A DNA stretch of 64,000 nt from Arsukibacterium sp. (GCF_033721375.1 NZ_JAWWAP010000004.1:240662-304661); one strand, 5' to 3'. Positions 14,034 through 22,743 are shown, counted from the first letter of the stretch. The notes: generated by a model not told the origin, from the sequence alone. A program made the numbers and translations.

Positions 14034-14426
14034 ATGTCAAAAGTCATTATCCGCACTGAAGCAGCCCCTGCTGCTATTGGCACTTACAGCCAGGCGGTAA
14101 AAATTGGTACCACGGTTTATTTATCAGGTCAGATCCCATTAGTGCCGTCTACCATGCAAATGGTCTCAGAAGATTTTGCCGAGCAGACTCATCAGGTGTT
14201 TAAAAACCTGACCGCAGTCTGTGAAGCCGCCGGCGGCAACCTGAATAATATGGTGAAAGTTAATATTTTTCTGACCGATCTTGGCCAGTTTGCCACGGTA
14301 AATCAGATTATGAGCGAATACTTTGCCGAACCGTATCCGGCCAGAGCCGCAGTCCAGGTCAGTGCGCTGCCCCGTGGATCACAAATTGAAATTGACGGTG
14401 TAATGGAAGTGCCGTCTACTCATTAA
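14034..14426 (+). CDS. ridA: RidA/YjgF-family reactive-intermediate deaminase
   Basis: [36 protein letters not shown] and [21 protein letters not shown] are typical RidA sequences. The start at 14034 has a GGAA-type RBS upstream. Confidence 0.9.
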
Positions 14427-15259
14427 TGATAAAATCAGCCGTGTTACGTCACCTCTGGCCGCTGGCTGCCTGGCTTTATTTACTGCCACAACCGGCTGTG
14501 GCCGAAATTCAGCCACCGGTTATTGCGCCCCCTACCCTGGTCTGGTGCCTGGATCATTTCCCGCACTTTCATGAGTATGACAGCGGCGACACCCCTACTG
14601 GCCCATCGGTAGAATTAATTCAGGAACTGGCCAGACGGGCGGGTTTTCAGCTGAGCTTTACCCCACGCACCAATCTGGCCCGTTGTCTGAAGCTGATGGA
14701 GCAGGGAGAAGTCGACCTGATGACCAACCTCAGATACAGCGATGAGCGCAACCAGTTCATGTATCTGCTGCCGTATAGCAATAATGTCGCGGAAAGCTTA
14801 TTTCTGCGAATAGCCGATAACCGGCTTATCGACAGTAAAGCCCAGTTACGCAGCCTTACCCTGGCCACCTTACGCCACTATTTGTATAACCCGGCCACTA
14901 TGGCACTTATCGCAGAAGAGTCACGCCATATCGCCCAGGTTGACAGCATAGAAGTGGCGCTGGAAATGTTATTGCGCAAACGAATTGACGGCCTGGTTGC
15001 GCCGACAATCAGCACCACCGAAGCCATTAATGCGGTAAGCAGTTATCAGCAGCGCTTTAAAATTGCCCCACTTGATTTTAGCGGTAACACACCGAACAAC
15101 ATTCATCTCGCTATTGCCAGAAACAGCCCACATGCTGCTTTACAGCCGTTGTTGCAACATCATTTGCAAACCATGATTGACGATGGCACGGTAGAGCGGC
15201 TTATCCGCAACCCGGAAAACCGGCCTGACGTTAACGAGCTGAAACTGCAACAACCTTAA
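14426..15259 (+). CDS. periplasmic solute-binding-protein family 3-like protein
   Basis: Signal peptide (WPLAAWLYLLPQPAVA), then a pattern typical of SBP_bac_3 orphan binding proteins (GxxVELIQELARRAGFQLSF..., CLKLMEQGEVDLM, RIDGLVAP). The start overlaps the ridA stop (TAATG). Confidence 0.6.
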   Translation: MIKSAVLRHLWPLAAWLYLLPQPAVAEIQPPVIAPPTLVWCLDHFPHFHEYDSGDTPTGPSVELIQELARRAGFQLSFTPRTNLARCLKLMEQGEVDLMTNLRYSDERNQFMYLLPYSNNVAESLFLRIADNRLIDSKAQLRSLTLATLRHYLYNPATMALIAEESRHIAQVDSIEVALEMLLRKRIDGLVAPTISTTEAINAVSSYQQRFKIAPLDFSGNTPNNIHLAIARNSPHAALQPLLQHHLQTMIDDGTVERLIRNPENRPDVNELKLQQP

Positions 15260-15325: not shown

Positions 15326-17407
15326 TTGCCGCATACCCGACTGGATAGCCTCAGCATCAGCCTGATCAAGGGCGTAGGTGCCAAAGTGGCAGAGCGCCTG
15401 GAAAAGCTTGGCATCGCCAGTGTCCAGGACTTACTGTTTCATCTGCCGCTACGTTACGAAGACCGCACCCGCATTTATGCTATCGCCGACTTAATGCCAG
15501 CAATCCACGCTACTGTGCTGGCAGAGGTGATCAGCAGTGAAATTCAGTTTGGCAAAAGACGTAGCTGGCTGGTAAAGGTCACTGACGGCAGCGGTTTTTT
15601 AACCTGCCGGTTTTTTCACTTTAGCGCAGCGCAGAAAAATGCGGTAACACCCGGGGTGAAACTGCGGTTGTTTGGCGAGGTTAAACGCGGCCCGCGGGGC
15701 GTTGAGATGCTGCATCCGGAATACCGGGTACAACAGGACGAGCAACTGCAACAGGTCGCGGAAACCCTTACCCCGGTGTACCCGACCACCGAAGGTATTA
15801 AACAGGCCAGCTGGCGCAAACTCACCGATACCGCACTGGAATACCTGAGCCGCTATGCCCCGGCAGAGTACTTACCGGCAACCTTGCTAAGTTCGCCCTG
15901 GTCACTGGCCGAGGCGCTGGCGTATATTCACCGGCCGCCACCGGATGCCCAGCTCAGTCTGCTGGAAGAAGGGCGTCACCCGGCGCAGCAGCGGCTTATT
16001 CTGGAAGAACTGGTGGCCCAGCAACTGAGCATGCATCAGCTGCGCAGTCAGAGCCAGCGCCAGCGGGCGATTGCCCTGAACCACAACCGCGATATTGAGC
16101 AAACTTTTTTAGCCAGCTTGCCGTTTCAGCTGACTGCTGCACAGCAGCGGGTGGTGGCTGAGCTGCGGCAGGATCTCGCCAAGCCGCTGCCAATGCTGCG
16201 TCTGGTTCAGGGTGATGTTGGCTCGGGCAAAACCCTGGTGGCGGCCTTAGCTGCGCTGACGGCAATCAGTCAGGGTTATCAGGTGGCGCTGATGGCACCG
16301 ACTGAACTGCTGGCCGAACAGCATGCCACAAACTTCAGCAACTGGTTCAGCCCACTTGGCATTACCGTGGCCTGGTTGGGTGGCAAAACCAAAGGCAAGG
16401 CCCGCGATGAGGTGCTGAGCCAGCTGGCCGATGGCCGGGCCCAGATGGTGCTGGGCACCCATGCGTTATTCCAGCAAAGTGTCAGCTTTTGCAAACTGGC
16501 GCTGATTATTATCGACGAGCAACACCGCTTTGGCGTGCATCAACGGTTAGCCCTGCGGGAAAAAGGCGGTATTGCCGGCGTCTATCCGCACCAGCTGGTG
16601 ATGACGGCTACCCCTATTCCACGCACGCTGGCGATGACCGCCTATGCTGATCTGGATACCTCAGTTATCGATGAGTTACCGCCAGGTCGCACTCCGGTTA
16701 CCACCGTTGCGATTCCTGACAGCCGGCGCCAGGAGATTATCGAGCGGGTGCGCAATGGCGTATTGCAGGATAAACGCCAGGTATACTGGGTGTGTACCTT
16801 AATTGAAGAATCTGAAGTATTACAATGTCAGGCGGCCGAAGACACCGCAGCCAGCCTGGCCGCTGCCTTACCAGAGCTGAAAATTGCCCTGGTACATGGC
16901 CGATTAAAAAGTGCTGAAAAACAAGATATTATGGCGCGTTTCAGCAGTGGCGAGCTAGACTTACTGGTTGCCACCACGGTAATAGAAGTCGGGGTCGACG
17001 TACCCAACGCCAGTTTAATGATTATTGAAAATCCGGAGCGGCTGGGTCTGGCCCAATTGCATCAGTTACGCGGCCGGGTTGGTCGCGGCAGCGCGGTATC
17101 CCATTGCGTGTTGTTGTATCATGCGCCATTATCAAAAACAGCACAGGCCAGGCTAAGCGTATTGCGCGACTCTAACGATGGCTTTGTGATTGCCCAGCGC
17201 GACCTGGAAATCCGCGGCCCCGGTGAGCTGCTGGGCACCCGCCAGACCGGCCTGCTGCAGTTTAAAATTGCCGACATCAGCCGCGATGCCGAGCTTATTC
17301 CACATGCCCGCCAACTGGCTGCAACGCTGTGGCAGCAGGACCAGAGCGCCTGCCTGCAACTGATCCGCCGCTGGCTGGCGAATAAAGATATTTACGGCAA
17401 CGCCTGA
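15326..17407 (+). CDS. recG: ATP-dependent DNA helicase RecG
   Basis: 693 aa. LFHLPLRYEDRT wedge region, helicase motif I GDVGSGKT, DEQHRFGV, and QLHQLRGRVGRG. TTG start. Confidence 0.95.
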   Translation: MPHTRLDSLSISLIKGVGAKVAERLEKLGIASVQDLLFHLPLRYEDRTRIYAIADLMPAIHATVLAEVISSEIQFGKRRSWLVKVTDGSGFLTCRFFHFSAAQKNAVTPGVKLRLFGEVKRGPRGVEMLHPEYRVQQDEQLQQVAETLTPVYPTTEGIKQASWRKLTDTALEYLSRYAPAEYLPATLLSSPWSLAEALAYIHRPPPDAQLSLLEEGRHPAQQRLILEELVAQQLSMHQLRSQSQRQRAIALNHNRDIEQTFLASLPFQLTAAQQRVVAELRQDLAKPLPMLRLVQGDVGSGKTLVAALAALTAISQGYQVALMAPTELLAEQHATNFSNWFSPLGITVAWLGGKTKGKARDEVLSQLADGRAQMVLGTHALFQQSVSFCKLALIIIDEQHRFGVHQRLALREKGGIAGVYPHQLVMTATPIPRTLAMTAYADLDTSVIDELPPGRTPVTTVAIPDSRRQEIIERVRNGVLQDKRQVYWVCTLIEESEVLQCQAAEDTAASLAAALPELKIALVHGRLKSAEKQDIMARFSSGELDLLVATTVIEVGVDVPNASLMIIENPERLGLAQLHQLRGRVGRGSAVSHCVLLYHAPLSKTAQARLSVLRDSNDGFVIAQRDLEIRGPGELLGTRQTGLLQFKIADISRDAELIPHARQLAATLWQQDQSACLQLIRRWLANKDIYGNA

Positions 17408-17419
17408 GGGACAACAGCA

Positions 17420-18238
17420 ATGAAAAATCTGCAACCACTTATGCAACCTCTTTTGCAACCACTAAGCCCGCTGCAAATTCGCCAACAGTGCCGCAGTGGT
17501 CAGTTCAGCGCTACCACCTCGGGTTTGGCGCCAGGCTTTGTTCAGGCCAATATGGTCATTTTACCAAAGCAGTATGCCGCCGATTTTTTGCAGTTCTGTC
17601 ATTTTAACCCTAAGCCCTGTCCGCTGCTGGGCATGGCGGCAATGCCCGGCGCCATTGATATGCCGGCGCTGGCGCAGCAGCTGGATATTCGCCGCGACTT
17701 ACCCAGATACCGGATTTTCCAGGATGGCAAGCTGAGCAATGAAGTCACTGATGTCACAACGTACTGGCGGGATGATTTAGTGACTTTCCTGATTGGCTGC
17801 TCGTTTTCGTTTGAAGAATCTTTACTGGCCGATGGCCTGGAGATCCGTAATATCACCGAACAGGTCAATGTGCCAATGTATCGCACCAACCTTGAGTGCA
17901 CCCCGGCAGGGGCATTTCACGGCGGTATGGTGGCCAGTATGCGGCCAATGACCCCGGCCGATGCCATCCGGGCTATTCAGATTTGCTCGCGTTTTCCTCA
18001 GGTACACGGCGCGCCGGTGCACTTTGGCGATCCGGCCGCTATTGGTATCAGCAATATCGATAAACCCGATTTTGGTGATGCAGTCACAATAAAACCGGGC
18101 GAAGTACCGGTATTCTGGGCCTGCGGTGTTACGCCTCAGGTCGCTATAGCCAATGCCAAAGTAGACTTTTGCATTACTCACAGCCCCGGCCATATGCTGG
18201 TACTGGATGTCCCAAACAGCAAACTATCAATACTTTGA
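17420..18238 (+). CDS. DUF1445/UPF0317 putative hydro-lyase (D-glutamate cyclase-like)
   Basis: The N-terminal block [38 protein letters not shown] matches the conserved signature I recall for the UPF0317 putative hydro-lyase family. 272 aa is the typical length. Confidence 0.8.
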
Positions 18239-18260: not shown

Positions 18261-21200
18261 TCAGCTTTTAAAGTAGCTGCGTAAGGTACTGCCACTGCTG
18301 AATACGCTGATCATGCTGCCCAGTACGCCGGCAATCGAAGCGGCGACGATATGCAGTGACTGTCCCGAGGTCAGCGCAATGCCACCGACGATCACCACCA
18401 CCACTACCGCAAAACTGAGCCGGTAGTTTTTCCAGACACCGGCTTCGCCCACTTTTACCAGCTGGCGCAGCGTTTCAGAAGGCTCAGCATTTTGCACAAA
18501 CTGGCGGAAGCTGCGGTTCACCAGCTCTAAACGACCCCGGCTTACCCGCAGCAGGCCATTCATTGCTAAATGCTCAATCATCAGGTAATTCAGTGGGTTA
18601 AGCTGATGACCATTGGAAAGATTAAACAAGGCCAGTTTTTCTTCGTTGCTGCAGCTCTCCCACTTGTAGCGATACAGCGCATCGGCATGATGCAGAATAA
18701 AATTTAACGTGGCCCATTGCCGGGTACTCAGGCCATCGCTGCCACGCCAGATACTTTGCTTATCCTCTGTCTGTTGGCTCAGCTGCTCTGTCGTTACCGG
18801 CAGGGGGCCAAGCAACGGGTAAGCCGTTATTTCCTGCTGCAACATCTCGGTATCCAGCGGCTGAGCCAATGCCGGGGGTAGCTGGACGTTAAAATTCAGC
18901 AGACATTCTGACCACGCAAGATACTCGGTCTGCTCCAGCATGCTGCCACCGGCTGCGGCCAGGTCGTCTTTTATTGTTAATCGCTGCAGGCTGTTAAACC
19001 CCATCACCAGGTTAAACTCAGTTAACGTGCCCAGTAACGTCAGGTTTTTTAACTCGTTGATAAGCGCCAGTAATTGCTGCCGCCGCCGCGGCCCATCCAG
19101 GCAGGTCTCTATCTGACTAAGGGTAACCCGGACAGGCTCATCGGCCCGGGTTTGCTGCAGCGTTATTGACACATTCTGCAACTGTGAATCATCGTTAAGT
19201 TGCCTTAACAGGGCACTTTGCCGGTACAGCTGGGCAAAGCCCGGCAGCGACGGCGAACGGTTATCACCATCACTATCTGCCAGCTGCTGCTGTTTTATCA
19301 GCAGCATTAAATTAACCCCGGCAGGCGGGCAGGCAGTTAACTGTAAGTGCAGCCCCGCAGTTAACCGCCTGCTGGGGCTCTGTTGCGCCTGCTGACACAA
19401 TTGATAAATATGCCGCAAAAAATCACTGTTATAGCCTAAGCGTTGCCATAACACCCGACGCACGTACAGCTGCCAGAGCAGCAGCAATAATCCCAGTGGC
19501 AGTAAAAAGCGTAAGCACACCGCAGCCAGCTGGCCCGCTGATTGCACACTGCTGGCACTATCGCGTAACTGCTGCAAAGCCTGGTCAGGCACATCAAGCG
19601 GCTCAACCCGTACCAGAAACGTTTTTACCCATTGCCATAAATAAGTATTGCCAATAATCGTACTCAGCTTTGGATAGTCATCTGGCATACCGCTGCTGTT
19701 TACGTCGGCGCAGCGCTGCTGCACCTCGGTATAAGACCAGTTTACCGGTAACAGTTGCCAGGGTTGCCAGCGCTGCTCAGTCATCGAATTGGGAAAACGG
19801 TTTAAAGCAAACTCATGAATTTCGGCCCGCTCGCGGTTAAATTCAATACATTGCATTTTGGCATAATGCGCCTGCAACGCCTGCTGCGGCACCTTGCTGA
19901 TATAGGACAGATAGCTGAACGGCGCCAGGGTAATCAGCGCCACGCTGCCGGCAATAATCAGTTTGGCAACAGGTTTAATAACCGGCGCCTGCGGCTTGCG
20001 CTGGCGTAAAAACAGGCCGGCACAGCCAGTAATCACCAGTAGCAAGGCCGCACTTAACCAGGGCAATAACGGGTTCAGCTGCGCCGACGGTATGGTCAGT
20101 TGCAGTGCCGTACGTAATGCAAAAAAGCCATATACCAGCCCCCAGATTAATGAAACCAGCAACAACAAACGCCGGCTGTCAAAACCAAGCGGAATAGTCA
20201 GCCGGTTTTTCAGCTGTTTGCTGTTAAAGAAGCGTCTTGCCAGTTGTAAGCCTGTGATCAGTAATAAAAAAAACACTATCATACTGACACTGAAAATCAG
20301 GAACTGGTTGCTCATAATGGCATCGACATGGTCTTGCGGGTAAAACAGTACCAGCGCCCATTCATCAACCGGCGTGCCACTCAGAATAAAATTGCCCGGT
20401 TGACCATGATAAAAACCGGCCAGTCCAGCTTTGATGCCATCGCCGGTCGGCTCGCCTGATTTAATCGTCTGGCTAAGCAGGTTATTCTCGCTGCCTATAT
20501 AGTAAATATTCTCGACAAAAGTGCGGCTGTTATCGTTGTGATAAAGCACTTTACCGCTGCGGCGCTCTACCACCATAAACTGCAGACCATGGGCAGGCGG
20601 CGGGGCCAGACTGACCGACGGCAGCACCACATCGGCAACCAGCACAAAGCCGGCATCAGCGTAGCTGTCAGCATCAGGTTCAGCCATCAGTGGCATAGCT
20701 ATGGTCGTGCCGCGGGTGCCGTTATTTATGTTCAGCAAGCGCTGAATATACACATTGTTAAATTGCTGACCAGCCAAATCCAGTTGCCAGCCATTGCCCT
20801 GGCGCACCCGTTTAAAATAATCACGATGCGATAAATCATAAATTTTTAGCGCGGCATTATTTTCCAGATAATACACCGAGGGCAGGCTGGAACGGCCGGC
20901 AGCATCAAGCAGTGTTACCGACAGCAAACGGCCGGGAGTCAACGTCGCATCCCGCCGGTAATAGCTTCGCAGTGAGCAGGGCGGATCAGCGGCTACCTGC
21001 ATCGACTGCGGATAAAAATCAAAAATTAACTCCGTCGATGTACAGTCAGTCAGTAACTGCCGGTAATTGACTTTCTGCAACTGGCGCACCGGCTGCAACA
21101 ACTCGGCATAAGGCGCAGCGCCCTGCCAGTGCCGCTGATAATATGCGCCATACTGTTGCAATTCAGAAAATACCGCTTTAATGTCTGCCGTCAACCCGGC

Positions 21201-22274
21201 CCGCAGCTGCGTTATATATTGTTCAGCCTGTTGCTGCCGGCTTTGTTGCCATACCGACACCGTTAGATAGCTGAAAATCAGCGCCAGCAACACGGCGAAA
21301 AAACCATAGGCAATCAGATAACAGAAACTGGCGTATAAGCGGTTAACCGACTGGTTTTTCGGTTGCAGATACATCCGCAGTACCGACCAGACAAAAATCA
21401 GACTGACCAGGGTGGCAAACAGCAACGGAATATTCCAGTAACCACTGCCCTGCTCGGCTAATTGTTGCCGGGGCAGCAAGCCAACCAGATATAACTGCTG
21501 CACCGACTGATCCTCAGCCATGCTGTTTACTGCCACCAGCCCGGCCGCCAGCCGCATCGGATAAATAAACAACCGGTAATCGCCATAAGACAGTTTCATA
21601 TCCAGCTGCACACTGTAACTGGGTAACCTTGGCTCTGGTCGTTGGCCGCTGTCGGTAACTTCACTGAAAAAATCACTGAACTGATGCTTACTCAGCGCTT
21701 CAGTCACACTGGTAAGATTAACAAAAGAAATGGTGGTTTCGCCGCCGGTGCTGGCAAGTACCTGACTGTCTTCGGTAACAAACAGCAGCTGACTGAAGCC
21801 GCGCTCTGGCTCCGGTAAAAAATCAGCATGCTGAATTTCAGCCTCAGTATAACTGACTGTGTCTTTATCCAGCCACTGGTACCAGCGCAGTTGCACCTTG
21901 TCCTGGGTCAGCCAGTACCGGTTAGTGTAGGTTGGGCAATCAGTATTGACATCAGCAGCCTGCTGCGGGCATTTAGCGCTAAGCTTTTGCCGGGTGGTAA
22001 CTTTATAACTGGGAAATAAGGCGCGGATCGCCGTTTCGCTTTCCTGATAGTCATATAAGCTTTGCAGCTTAATCAGGTTTTCAGTGAAAGTACTACCTGC
22101 TTCGGCCAGCACCCTGAAGTAATCCTGGTTTATCACACTACTGCGGGCCTGGGCATAACGGTAATAACCAAATACCATTAATCCCAGTAACGCCGCCATC
22201 AGCAATATCAGACCAGCAATCCGTTTCGGGCCGGTTTTTGGCGGGCGTTGCGTCGACGCAGTGTTGTTGCTCAT
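18261..22274 (-). CDS. large multi-pass membrane protein of unknown function (two Cache-like periplasmic modules, cytoplasmic degenerate NTPase/winged-helix-like region, C-terminal TM tail)
   Basis: A single uninterrupted 1337-codon ORF from the ATG at 22274 (TTG alternative at 22322). Hydrophobic helices lie near residues 20-40, 290-350, 655-780, 905-930 and 1290-1325. It contains an HRDYFKRVRQGNGW segment reminiscent of Cache domains. No catalytic output domain recognised. Confidence 0.8.
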   Translation of the reverse strand: MSNNTASTQRPPKTGPKRIAGLILLMAALLGLMVFGYYRYAQARSSVINQDYFRVLAEAGSTFTENLIKLQSLYDYQESETAIRALFPSYKVTTRQKLSAKCPQQAADVNTDCPTYTNRYWLTQDKVQLRWYQWLDKDTVSYTEAEIQHADFLPEPERGFSQLLFVTEDSQVLASTGGETTISFVNLTSVTEALSKHQFSDFFSEVTDSGQRPEPRLPSYSVQLDMKLSYGDYRLFIYPMRLAAGLVAVNSMAEDQSVQQLYLVGLLPRQQLAEQGSGYWNIPLLFATLVSLIFVWSVLRMYLQPKNQSVNRLYASFCYLIAYGFFAVLLALIFSYLTVSVWQQSRQQQAEQYITQLRAGLTADIKAVFSELQQYGAYYQRHWQGAAPYAELLQPVRQLQKVNYRQLLTDCTSTELIFDFYPQSMQVAADPPCSLRSYYRRDATLTPGRLLSVTLLDAAGRSSLPSVYYLENNAALKIYDLSHRDYFKRVRQGNGWQLDLAGQQFNNVYIQRLLNINNGTRGTTIAMPLMAEPDADSYADAGFVLVADVVLPSVSLAPPPAHGLQFMVVERRSGKVLYHNDNSRTFVENIYYIGSENNLLSQTIKSGEPTGDGIKAGLAGFYHGQPGNFILSGTPVDEWALVLFYPQDHVDAIMSNQFLIFSVSMIVFFLLLITGLQLARRFFNSKQLKNRLTIPLGFDSRRLLLLVSLIWGLVYGFFALRTALQLTIPSAQLNPLLPWLSAALLLVITGCAGLFLRQRKPQAPVIKPVAKLIIAGSVALITLAPFSYLSYISKVPQQALQAHYAKMQCIEFNRERAEIHEFALNRFPNSMTEQRWQPWQLLPVNWSYTEVQQRCADVNSSGMPDDYPKLSTIIGNTYLWQWVKTFLVRVEPLDVPDQALQQLRDSASSVQSAGQLAAVCLRFLLPLGLLLLLWQLYVRRVLWQRLGYNSDFLRHIYQLCQQAQQSPSRRLTAGLHLQLTACPPAGVNLMLLIKQQQLADSDGDNRSPSLPGFAQLYRQSALLRQLNDDSQLQNVSITLQQTRADEPVRVTLSQIETCLDGPRRRQQLLALINELKNLTLLGTLTEFNLVMGFNSLQRLTIKDDLAAAGGSMLEQTEYLAWSECLLNFNVQLPPALAQPLDTEMLQQEITAYPLLGPLPVTTEQLSQQTEDKQSIWRGSDGLSTRQWATLNFILHHADALYRYKWESCSNEEKLALFNLSNGHQLNPLNYLMIEHLAMNGLLRVSRGRLELVNRSFRQFVQNAEPSETLRQLVKVGEAGVWKNYRLSFAVVVVVIVGGIALTSGQSLHIVAASIAGVLGSMISVFSSGSTLRSYFKS

Positions 22275-22470
22275 GTTGCTGGCCTGTCCGTTAGCAGTTA
22301 AGTAATAACGCAAACTCAGCAAATTGCAAACTACAGCAGTCTGCCTCCCCTCTTGTAGTTAGTGACCAATTTCAAATGTTCAGCATTTTTGCTGTTTACG
22401 ATTATCGCTATTGAGCAGTTTGCCGGCTTTGCCTACAATGGCGCACATTTTCTTTATTAAGGCCAATGCC

Positions 22471-22743
22471 ATGAACGATACAACCGCCGATACGGTAAAC
22501 AACGAACAGGCCCGCCCGGAATTACCAGACCGCTTGTCGGTAAACCCGCGCAGCCCGCATTACGTGGAACAGATTTTTCAGTACGATGTCGGTATTAAGC
22601 TAAACGGCAAAGAGCGCTTTGACGTTGAAGAATACTGTATCAGCGAAGGCTGGGTTAAAGCAGCGGCAGCCAAAGCGCTGGACCGTCGCGGCCAACCGTT
22701 ATTAATGACATTAAAAGGCAAAGTAGAAGCTTTTTATCGCTGA
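22471..22743 (+). CDS. DUF3297-family protein
   Basis: 90 aa from the ATG at 22471. LPDRLSVNPRSPHYVEQIFQYDVGIKLNGKERFDVEEYCISEGWVKAA...LKGKVEAFYR matches my recollection of the DUF3297 consensus. Confidence 0.6.
   Translation: MNDTTADTVNNEQARPELPDRLSVNPRSPHYVEQIFQYDVGIKLNGKERFDVEEYCISEGWVKAAAAKALDRRGQPLLMTLKGKVEAFYR

Follow-up and report, generated by a model that had tools for sequence, protein, structure and literature searches.

Among the extracellular sensors of bacteria none is commoner than the Cache domain, and the outputs known for it comprise kinases, the signalling domains of chemoreceptors, cyclic-nucleotide enzymes and phosphatases. STAND proteins such as NLRs, Avs and MalT, on the other hand, are normally soluble cytoplasmic sensors, and the winged helix (WH) that follows the nucleotide-binding domain (NBD) in STAND and Cdc6-type proteins has a structural role within the switch. 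Two membrane systems also deserve mention here: the KAP proteins, whose NTPase domain is interrupted by transmembrane (TM) helices, and LapD, a c-di-GMP receptor with a degenerate GGDEF-EAL. We have analysed a gene whose product can be compared with these systems, found in a stretch of 64,000 nucleotides from Arsukibacterium sp. (GCF_033721375.1 NZ_JAWWAP010000004.1:240662-304661; the window in what follows, with positions counted from its first letter). The gene occupies 18261..22274 on the minus strand, as do all its parts located below, and encodes a membrane protein of 1337 residues. The reading that we favour, at somewhat better than even confidence, is that of a stand-alone inner-membrane receptor, where a Cache sensor is combined with a STAND-derived pseudo-NTPase acting as a nucleotide-independent conformational switch.

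The sensor was found in the second of three periplasmic domains (residues 335-657, core 445-649; 20304..21272), shown by Foldseek, Pfam and hhalign to be a genuine double-Cache fold lying between TM3 and TM4. An AlphaFold2 (AF2) model of residues 1-690 (pLDDT 72) contains two units, each a TM-continuous long helix followed by beta-rich modules. Foldseek searches of the Protein Data Bank (PDB) with this model gave 54 matches at E<=1e-3, the best being 7k5n (E 1.4e-5), and almost all of the 50 matches listed are double-Cache or tandem-PAS ligand-binding domains. The fold-search output carries no query ranges, and domain 2 was assigned as the matched part from sequence evidence. In this line, the Pfam profile dCache_1 (PF02743) aligns with residues 451-607 at 19.8 bits (E 6.1e-4), below its gathering threshold of 45 bits. 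The profile is found at E<=0.01 in only 2 of 21 family members, scores 25-35 bits in the relatives P0203, P0204, P0205 and P0207, and passes the threshold in another relative, P0036 (50.2 bits). Moreover, when domain 2 was compared by hhalign with 16 bona fide dCache_1 proteins taken from related genomes, the match reached 67.5% (E 5e-5, 147 columns) and brought the RDYF and GT..TTI.MP motifs into register. The conserved block that holds them reads SHRDYFKxVR...NVYIQRLLNINxGTRGTTISMP.

A preliminary description of the locus, made from the sequence, had proposed Cache-like periplasmic modules, with resemblance to Cache sensor motifs in the second long segment. Structure prediction followed by Foldseek did recover a Cache fold in this half of the protein, and the proposal stands for domain 2 (its HRDYFK...GTRGTTIAMPL segment, by Foldseek and hhalign) and is not borne out for domain 1, which gives no sequence signal. 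Domain 1 (residues 38-280; 21435..22163) is modelled as a long stalk helix and two beta-rich modules. It scored 1% (E 0.056) against the same 16 proteins and gave no Cache signal with Pfam, and the Cache-likeness of this beta-rich domain, a matter of AF2 topology alone, is not demonstrated. An origin of domains 1 and 2 by internal duplication is not supported (hhalign E 0.093 over 29 columns). The third domain reached 0.2% in the comparison with the dCache_1 set.

The described dCache_1 receptors (Mlp24/Mlp37, Tlp3, CtaA, DctB and the Aeromonas caviae diguanylate cyclase 7k5n) resemble the Arsukibacterium protein in having a periplasmic domain flanked by two TM helices, a stalk helix with tandem PAS-like modules (fold matches to E 1.4e-5) and the motifs R-D-[YW]-F and G-T-x-x-x-T-I-[AS]-x-P. 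Unlike them, the window protein has no kinase, MCP, GGDEF/EAL or cyclase output, its Cache domain is set in a protein of ten TM helices with two further periplasmic domains, and its Pfam score stays below threshold (19.8 against 45 bits). The lack of kinase, GGDEF/EAL or MCP output, already remarked upon in the preliminary description, agrees with the library searches, which matched no cytoplasmic output domain.

The cytoplasmic region spans residues ~939-1282, between TM8 and a terminal TM hairpin; it had been expected at that place and is shorter (~345 residues) than the 400 first estimated. Three parts can be recognized in it: an alpha/beta domain, probably NTPase-derived with its motifs lost (residues 939-1100; 18975..19460; AF2 beta-alpha pattern and the hhalign chain below); a helical linker including the conserved EYLsWaECLmdF helix (1101-1185; 18720..18974; AF2 and family alignment); and a winged-helix-like module (1186-1262; 18489..18719), where the protein is best conserved. 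For residues 640-1337, the AF2 model has a mean pLDDT of 68, with values of 70-89 in the cytoplasmic core and ~50 in the hairpin. It shows a strand at 975-979 (LHLQL), a loop at 980-988 (TACPPAGVN) and a helix at 989-1002 (LMLLIKQQQLADS); strands at 1036-1040 and 1048-1053 (VRVTLS, then QIE) followed by a long helix; a sensor-1-type strand at 1084-1091 leading into a helical stretch; and, at 1184-1251, an H-H-H-beta-beta arrangement followed by two further helices and the TM hairpin.

The first of these elements is the putative Walker-A remnant (residues 975-1002; 19269..19352). Its segment LQLTACPPAGVNLMLLI is modelled as strand-loop-helix at the site where relatives carry an intact Walker A, HVLIIGPPLSGKT; from this co-linearity and the modelled topology we infer that loop 980-988 corresponds to the P-loop. 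GK[ST] occurs at this site in none of the 29 aligned family members, the window protein having LHLQL-TACPPAGVN, and the loop residue G986 is invariant in the family. The candidate Walker-B remnant, VRVTLSQIE (residues 1048-1056; 19107..19133; family consensus V.LWDIE), sits where relatives have hhhhDHFEH. Profile alignment puts S/W at the site of the canonical Walker B Asp (VTLSQIE in the window protein), and the downstream Glu alone is kept. Judged by these alignments, this family has lost the Walker A Lys and Thr and the first Walker B Asp. A Walker-A strand-loop deprived of its GK(T/S) and a Walker-B/sensor stretch (RVTLSQIE) were what the preliminary description had read at these two places, and both identifications are borne out by the relatives. 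The winged helix proposed downstream is partly so, with the H-H-H-beta-beta order found and a direct match to any winged-helix family lacking.

The connection with NTPases that have intact motifs came through a chain of relatives. P0035, already a weak match in the first homologue search, has the same architecture as the window protein and a WH module 40% identical, and carries HVLIIGPPLSGKT shortly after the equivalent of TM8 and IALDHFEH further on. A search based on P0035 led to P0201 (HHLVIGLAESGKT), P0203 (NYIVLGPMRSGKS) and P0205 (NLILVGPPNSGKS), all with a canonical Walker A, and also to P0202, P0204, P0207 and P0036, where Walker A is eroded. For the hhalign comparisons, the Walker-A-bearing relatives were taken as clade B and motif-less proteins of 1700-1900 residues as clade C, a panel of known families (NACHT, nSTAND1, AAA and ABC_tran) was built from genome matches, and only the alpha/beta-plus-linker part was used, leaving aside the WH and TM segments. 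The family of the window protein matched clade C (87.5%, E 3.6e-6), which in turn matched clade B (95.2%, E 2.4e-8), these two links covering 150-166 columns; clade C also matched NACHT (81.8%, E 1.1e-5). Clades B and C merged gave 81.0% (E 1.2e-5) with NACHT, 27% (E 6.8e-4) with nSTAND1, 31% (E 5.1e-4) with AAA and 3.6% (E 0.012) with ABC_tran. In the alignment of clade C with NACHT, DGlDE pairs with xGIEx and the sensor-1 strands pair with each other, and the intact segment of P0205 has weak co-linear Pfam matches to TniB, AAA_22 (E 0.009), nSTAND1 (E 0.034) and AAA_16. At the level of sequence, these comparisons show that intermediates connect the cytoplasmic module by homology to a P-loop NTPase module of distant relatives with Walker A and B, for which NACHT-type STAND NTPases appear to be the best match among the four families tested.

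Set against STAND NTPases (NACHT PF05729, nSTAND), the module appears to keep the order of alpha/beta NBD, helical linker and winged helix, and the NACHT stretch DGlDE...IvssR aligns with the Walker B, acidic residue (DHFEH, GIDE/GLDE) and sensor-1 strand of the relatives. It differs in the loss of Walker A and of the first Walker B Asp, in giving no direct profile or fold match, in being strung between two membrane anchors and in its sensor, which is N-terminal, periplasmic and of Cache type instead of made of C-terminal repeats. KAP (PF07693) and Tmn/YobI proteins likewise integrate a P-loop-type module with TM helices at the cytoplasmic face (for Tmn, according to PMC13001434). In contrast to KAP, the hairpin of the window protein comes after the winged helix and not within the alpha/beta domain, and neither KAP nor Tmn/YobI is known to have a periplasmic sensor. 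Neither the Pfam KAP profile nor PADLOC matched the protein.

How the receptor might work can be sketched from this architecture. The Cache domain would bind a small ligand or a periplasmic partner, and the signal would reach TM8 by way of TM3, TM4 and the membrane bundle. TM8 would carry the NBD-like domain, and the conserved hairpin TM9-10 the winged helix; with two separate anchors, relative motion of TM8 and TM9-10 could open and close an NBD/WH clamshell, a movement that would replace the ADP/ATP exchange driving canonical STAND switches. The open form may then self-associate or recruit an unlinked partner. A broader proposal, which we put forward tentatively and hold to be rather doubtful, is that these proteins make up a new class of transmembrane signalling devices consisting of a single protein, where a NACHT-like NOD (NBD, helical and WH parts) is hung between two membrane anchors and driven by Cache; the superfamily would mix nucleotide-using members with nucleotide-independent ones, the latter being most of those examined, and helix movement would stand in for ATP/ADP exchange.

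A number of observations weigh against the receptor with a pseudo-NTPase switch. The chain to P-loop proteins is indirect, so that a STAND-like ancestry of the module, which the preliminary description had proposed for an inactivated version, is supported only transitively (clade C as the intermediate, 81.8% and E 1.1e-5 with NACHT) and finds no direct match. The family itself gave less than 1% with NACHT, nSTAND1 and AAA in hhalign, and was also non-significant with ABC; HMMER searches of Pfam, NCBIfam, PADLOC and PDB sequences found no match to P-loop, STAND or winged helix-turn-helix (wHTH) families. The hhalign probabilities come from small custom alignments with no secondary-structure scoring, over some 22 comparisons. 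Foldseek with residues 640-1337 reached a best E of about 1 in the PDB and 0.5 in BFVD, and the archaeal AAA+/WH protein 2fna appears in the PDB search at E 8.7 only. For the cytoplasmic half, the structural check gave a secondary-structure order that fits NBD-helical-WH and no significant match to an NTPase fold; AF2 confidence is moderate for this part. The mechanical step of the switch is pure inference. The isolated alpha/beta segment had no Pfam match at E<=10, the WH profile had none in Pfam or PDB, and library searches with the whole protein and its segments returned the sub-threshold dCache_1 alone. PDB sequence matches to Rab-21, ApoA-I, Pep12p and de novo TIM barrels were set aside as chance or compositional.

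The topology of the whole protein was derived from Kyte-Doolittle hydropathy and the positive-inside rule, which predict ten TM helices, place the two termini on the cytoplasmic side and leave three periplasmic segments (residues 38-280, 335-657 and 788-915). A cytoplasmic N-terminus with 4 K/R precedes TM1 (residues 1-37, TM1 at 19-37; 22164..22274). After domain 1 come TM2 (281-299), a short basic cytoplasmic loop and TM3 (316-334), a well conserved pair (residues 281-334; 21273..21434), and after domain 2 a poorly conserved cluster, TM4-TM7 (658-676, 702-720, 736-754 and 765-787; together residues 658-787, 19914..20303; 21% identity). Periplasmic domain 3 (residues 788-915; 19530..19913) is helical according to AF2 and the consensus, and two cysteines in it, in ...MQC... 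and ...QRCAD..., are kept across the family, compatible with a periplasmic disulfide. TM8 (916-934) leads into the cytoplasm (residues 916-938; 19461..19529). The C-terminal part (residues 1263-1337; 18264..18488; 48-64% identity) comprises a helix after the WH module, the TM9-TM10 hairpin (1286-1325) with a polar tip, GGIALTSGQS, and a short basic tail; a SLATT or holin reading of this hairpin was discarded, the Foldseek and Pfam matches being at noise level. Prediction of the helices upheld in its main lines the layout that had been read from the sequence, with two helices after domain 1 where two or three had been counted and four in the central cluster where about five had been. The peptide strings quoted then are all present in the translation.

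Conservation along the protein, measured as identity of the window protein to distant family members by region, is highest in the WH module and the helix that follows it (58% each), followed by the TM9-10 hairpin (48%), the Cache core (45%) and the TM2-TM3 pair (41%), and falls to 21% in TM5-7 and 19% in TM8. The WH signature of the family, YR.KWESCS..EKLAL..L.....NP.N...IEHLA.NGL, recurs in the superfamily as YR.KWE.C[ST]..EKL.L..LA.....NP.N...[IL]E.L...G, and together with the polar-tipped hairpin this predicted module is the hallmark of the whole superfamily. Its putative recognition helix, LMIEHLAMN (consensus MIEHLALNG, or MIEHLA(L/M)NG with the variant residue), is hydrophobic and acidic and has no basic or polar DNA-reading residues, which argues against DNA binding and for a structural role of the WH.

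A cytoplasmic domain of enzyme origin that is catalytically dead yet strongly conserved also recalls the degenerate GGDEF-EAL of LapD, and the signal might run from inside to outside: the dead NTPase/WH part would take the input from a cytoplasmic ligand or protein, and the Cache-like domains would be the output, capturing or releasing a periplasmic partner, or the protein would serve as a scaffold. As in LapD, a membrane receptor keeping a dead enzyme fold as conformational switch would be combined with a periplasmic PAS/Cache-like domain; the unusually invariant motif block of the Cache core would suit an interface with a protein no less than a pocket for a ligand, and no cytoplasmic output domain can be recognized. 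The likeness is one of analogy only, for the cytoplasmic fold is unrelated and LapD, which works with LapG as its known partner, has HAMP and two TM helices. In the loci examined, no gene for a periplasmic partner is conserved nearby; no second-messenger-binding motif was identified, and the fold search ranks highest the ligand-binding dCache domains found in chemoreceptors and kinases. We regard this inside-out arrangement as improbable, even if it fares best among the alternatives to a receptor with an inward signal.

Far from being an orphan, as it had first been called, the protein has 34 strong homologues, full-length or near, of 1000-1570 residues, all annotated as 'hypothetical'. Relatives over the full length are spread over about 40 species, the genome scan having located 40 loci in Arsukibacterium, some ten genera of Alteromonadaceae and marine Nitrosomonas, and a profile of the C-terminal 400 residues, run against 1.84 billion representatives, matched 1958 clusters (defined at 50% identity) at E<=1e-3, 446 of them at E<=1e-10. 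Many of these matches are proteins of 1400-1900 residues with the same overall TM layout, and the names on record for the superfamily are again 'hypothetical protein'. Pfam scans of 38 superfamily members gave nothing above chance level beyond the Cache domain, and 15 distant members had zero matches. The impression that the architecture belongs to no described family was sustained, since no family library matched the whole protein and a full-text search of the literature found no description of a polytopic combination of Cache with a STAND-like module. A large unnamed superfamily was thus found in none of the family libraries and literature searched.

The family is patchy: an even sample of the class, made up of 399 further genomes, contained no match. 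In a maximum-likelihood tree, the Nitrosomonas clade (100/100) is nested within an Alteromonadaceae clade (98/97), and Arsukibacterium sits on a long branch; both features suggest, from the phylogeny of the sequences, horizontal transfer of the 4-kb gene, and the first of them a transfer between marine Alteromonadaceae and ammonia oxidisers. The Nitrosomonas copies (L013, L019, L037 and L039) come from Nitrosomonas marina and marine Nitrosomonas metagenome-assembled genomes. Three genomes have the orthologue split, in L005 (8001-12014; 187+598+590 residues), L036 (2802-7005; 681+726) and L024 (8001-12249; 107+1289), the first two being metagenome-assembled genomes; they are frameshifts, pseudogenes or assembly errors.

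The gene itself is an uninterrupted open reading frame of 1337 codons plus stop, as announced in the preliminary description, and lies on the minus strand. Its closest database orthologue, P0003 of Arsukibacterium indicum (85% identity), has 1337 residues as well, and for this reason the ATG at 22274, preceded by GGACAGG, is favoured as start; an in-frame TTG at 22322, 16 codons upstream (22275-22322, minus strand), would give 1353 residues. Both flanking genes run on the opposite strand, convergent at the 3' end (the D-glutamate-cyclase gene DUF1445, PF07286, at 17420-18238) and divergent at the 5' end (a DUF3297 gene at 22411-22743), which makes the gene monocistronic, in accordance with what had been stated. 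It is single-copy, no paralogue having been found in its own genome, and its unremarkable GC content does not indicate foreign DNA. In Arsukibacterium, recG and DUF1445 lie on one side and DUF3297 and pxpABC on the other; in Aliiglaciecola/Paraglaciecola, csdA-sufE and DUF2750 on one and recD and recB on the other; in Neptunicella the neighbours are a DUF4397 gene and a spoU-type methylase. Throughout the genomic loci examined the gene is monocistronic, amid housekeeping genes and with synteny stable within the genus. A search for conserved neighbours yielded nothing beyond this genus-level synteny: no operon partner is conserved in any clade examined, the top neighbour cluster is present in 11 of 33 loci, and the top clusters (DUF2750, csdA-sufE, recD and recB) reflect the synteny of genera. 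Two distant relatives are likewise solitary, with unrelated neighbours. The output is not encoded beside the gene, and the protein looks self-contained and outside any defence island, at least in its own family.

Recombination helicase genes occur in the convergent downstream neighbourhood in two unrelated synteny contexts, recG (15326-17407) one gene away in Arsukibacterium and recD-recB (L007, 12187-17717) directly adjoining the gene in Aliiglaciecola/Paraglaciecola, a nearness that is probably coincidental. Between ridA and recG, the window has a gene for a family-3 solute-binding protein (SBP_bac_3; 14426-15259, plus strand) with no transporter genes nearby. Elsewhere in the same genome, outside the window, contig C12 (94999-96258) encodes a canonical NTPase of the nSTAND1 family (PF20703, E 6e-86; open frame of 1094 residues), unrelated in sequence to the 1337-residue protein. 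The contig of P0035 (JGI sample 3300047160) offers a setting more mobile or defence-like than that of the window gene: a SIR2_2 gene, an IS110 fragment and two genes of integrase type adjoin P0035, and upstream of it come a contractile-sheath/AAA cluster and the gene of a sigma-54 activator.

Such surroundings of an intact relative, with integrases, a SIR2_2 gene and insertion sequence elements, could speak for a membrane effector or channel, where the TM4-8 bundle or the TM hairpin would form a Cache-gated pore or transporter and the STAND-like module would oligomerise, possibly in conflict or abortive infection. Few parts of the protein are as conserved as the TM9-10 hairpin, Foldseek gave noise-level matches to 2TM SLATT effectors (E 1.7-5.8), and TM P-loop NTPases that act in defence are on record, Tmn being one (PMC13001434). 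However, PADLOC-DB had no match at E<=1 for the window protein and four intact relatives, Pfam showed no SLATT or holin match beyond chance, TM5-7 are poorly conserved, GC content is unremarkable, and the loci examined have housekeeping surroundings with genus-stable synteny (recG/pxpABC, csdA-sufE/recDB, spoU). This explanation seems to us less probable again than the LapD-like one.

Lower still we place the view that the alpha/beta domain does not derive from an NTPase, its likeness being convergent and only the WH/TM-hairpin module being common to the Walker-A-bearing relatives. It could draw on the non-significant direct comparison of the family with clade B (E 0.39-0.64) and on a fold search that finds no P-loop protein, but the whole architecture is co-linear with that of the Walker-A-bearing relatives, clade C links both sides (4e-6 and 2e-8) with the WH and TM parts excluded, and G986 is invariant in the loop. 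Very improbable is a membrane-tethered transcription factor of ToxR/CadC-like logic, with a WH binding DNA at the membrane on a periplasmic signal, which has for it a winged-helix-type secondary structure anchored in the membrane on both sides and the want of another output domain, and against it the hydrophobic/acidic recognition helix, Pfam and PDB searches that returned no DNA-binding wHTH family and the structural nature of a WH placed after an NBD in STAND and Cdc6-type proteins.

Read as a Cache receptor with a STAND-derived switch, the Arsukibacterium protein would add a large unnamed superfamily (1958 clusters) where a polytopic membrane protein couples a Cache sensor to a switch of STAND/NACHT-like type. 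A STAND version with a periplasmic sensor would extend the logic of these proteins to extracellular signals, and the coexistence of intact and eroded nucleotide motifs would allow the passage from nucleotide switch to pseudo-enzyme to be studied as an experiment made by nature. Finally, the patchy spread of the family and its suggested transfer among marine bacteria would point to an accessory, niche-specific function.

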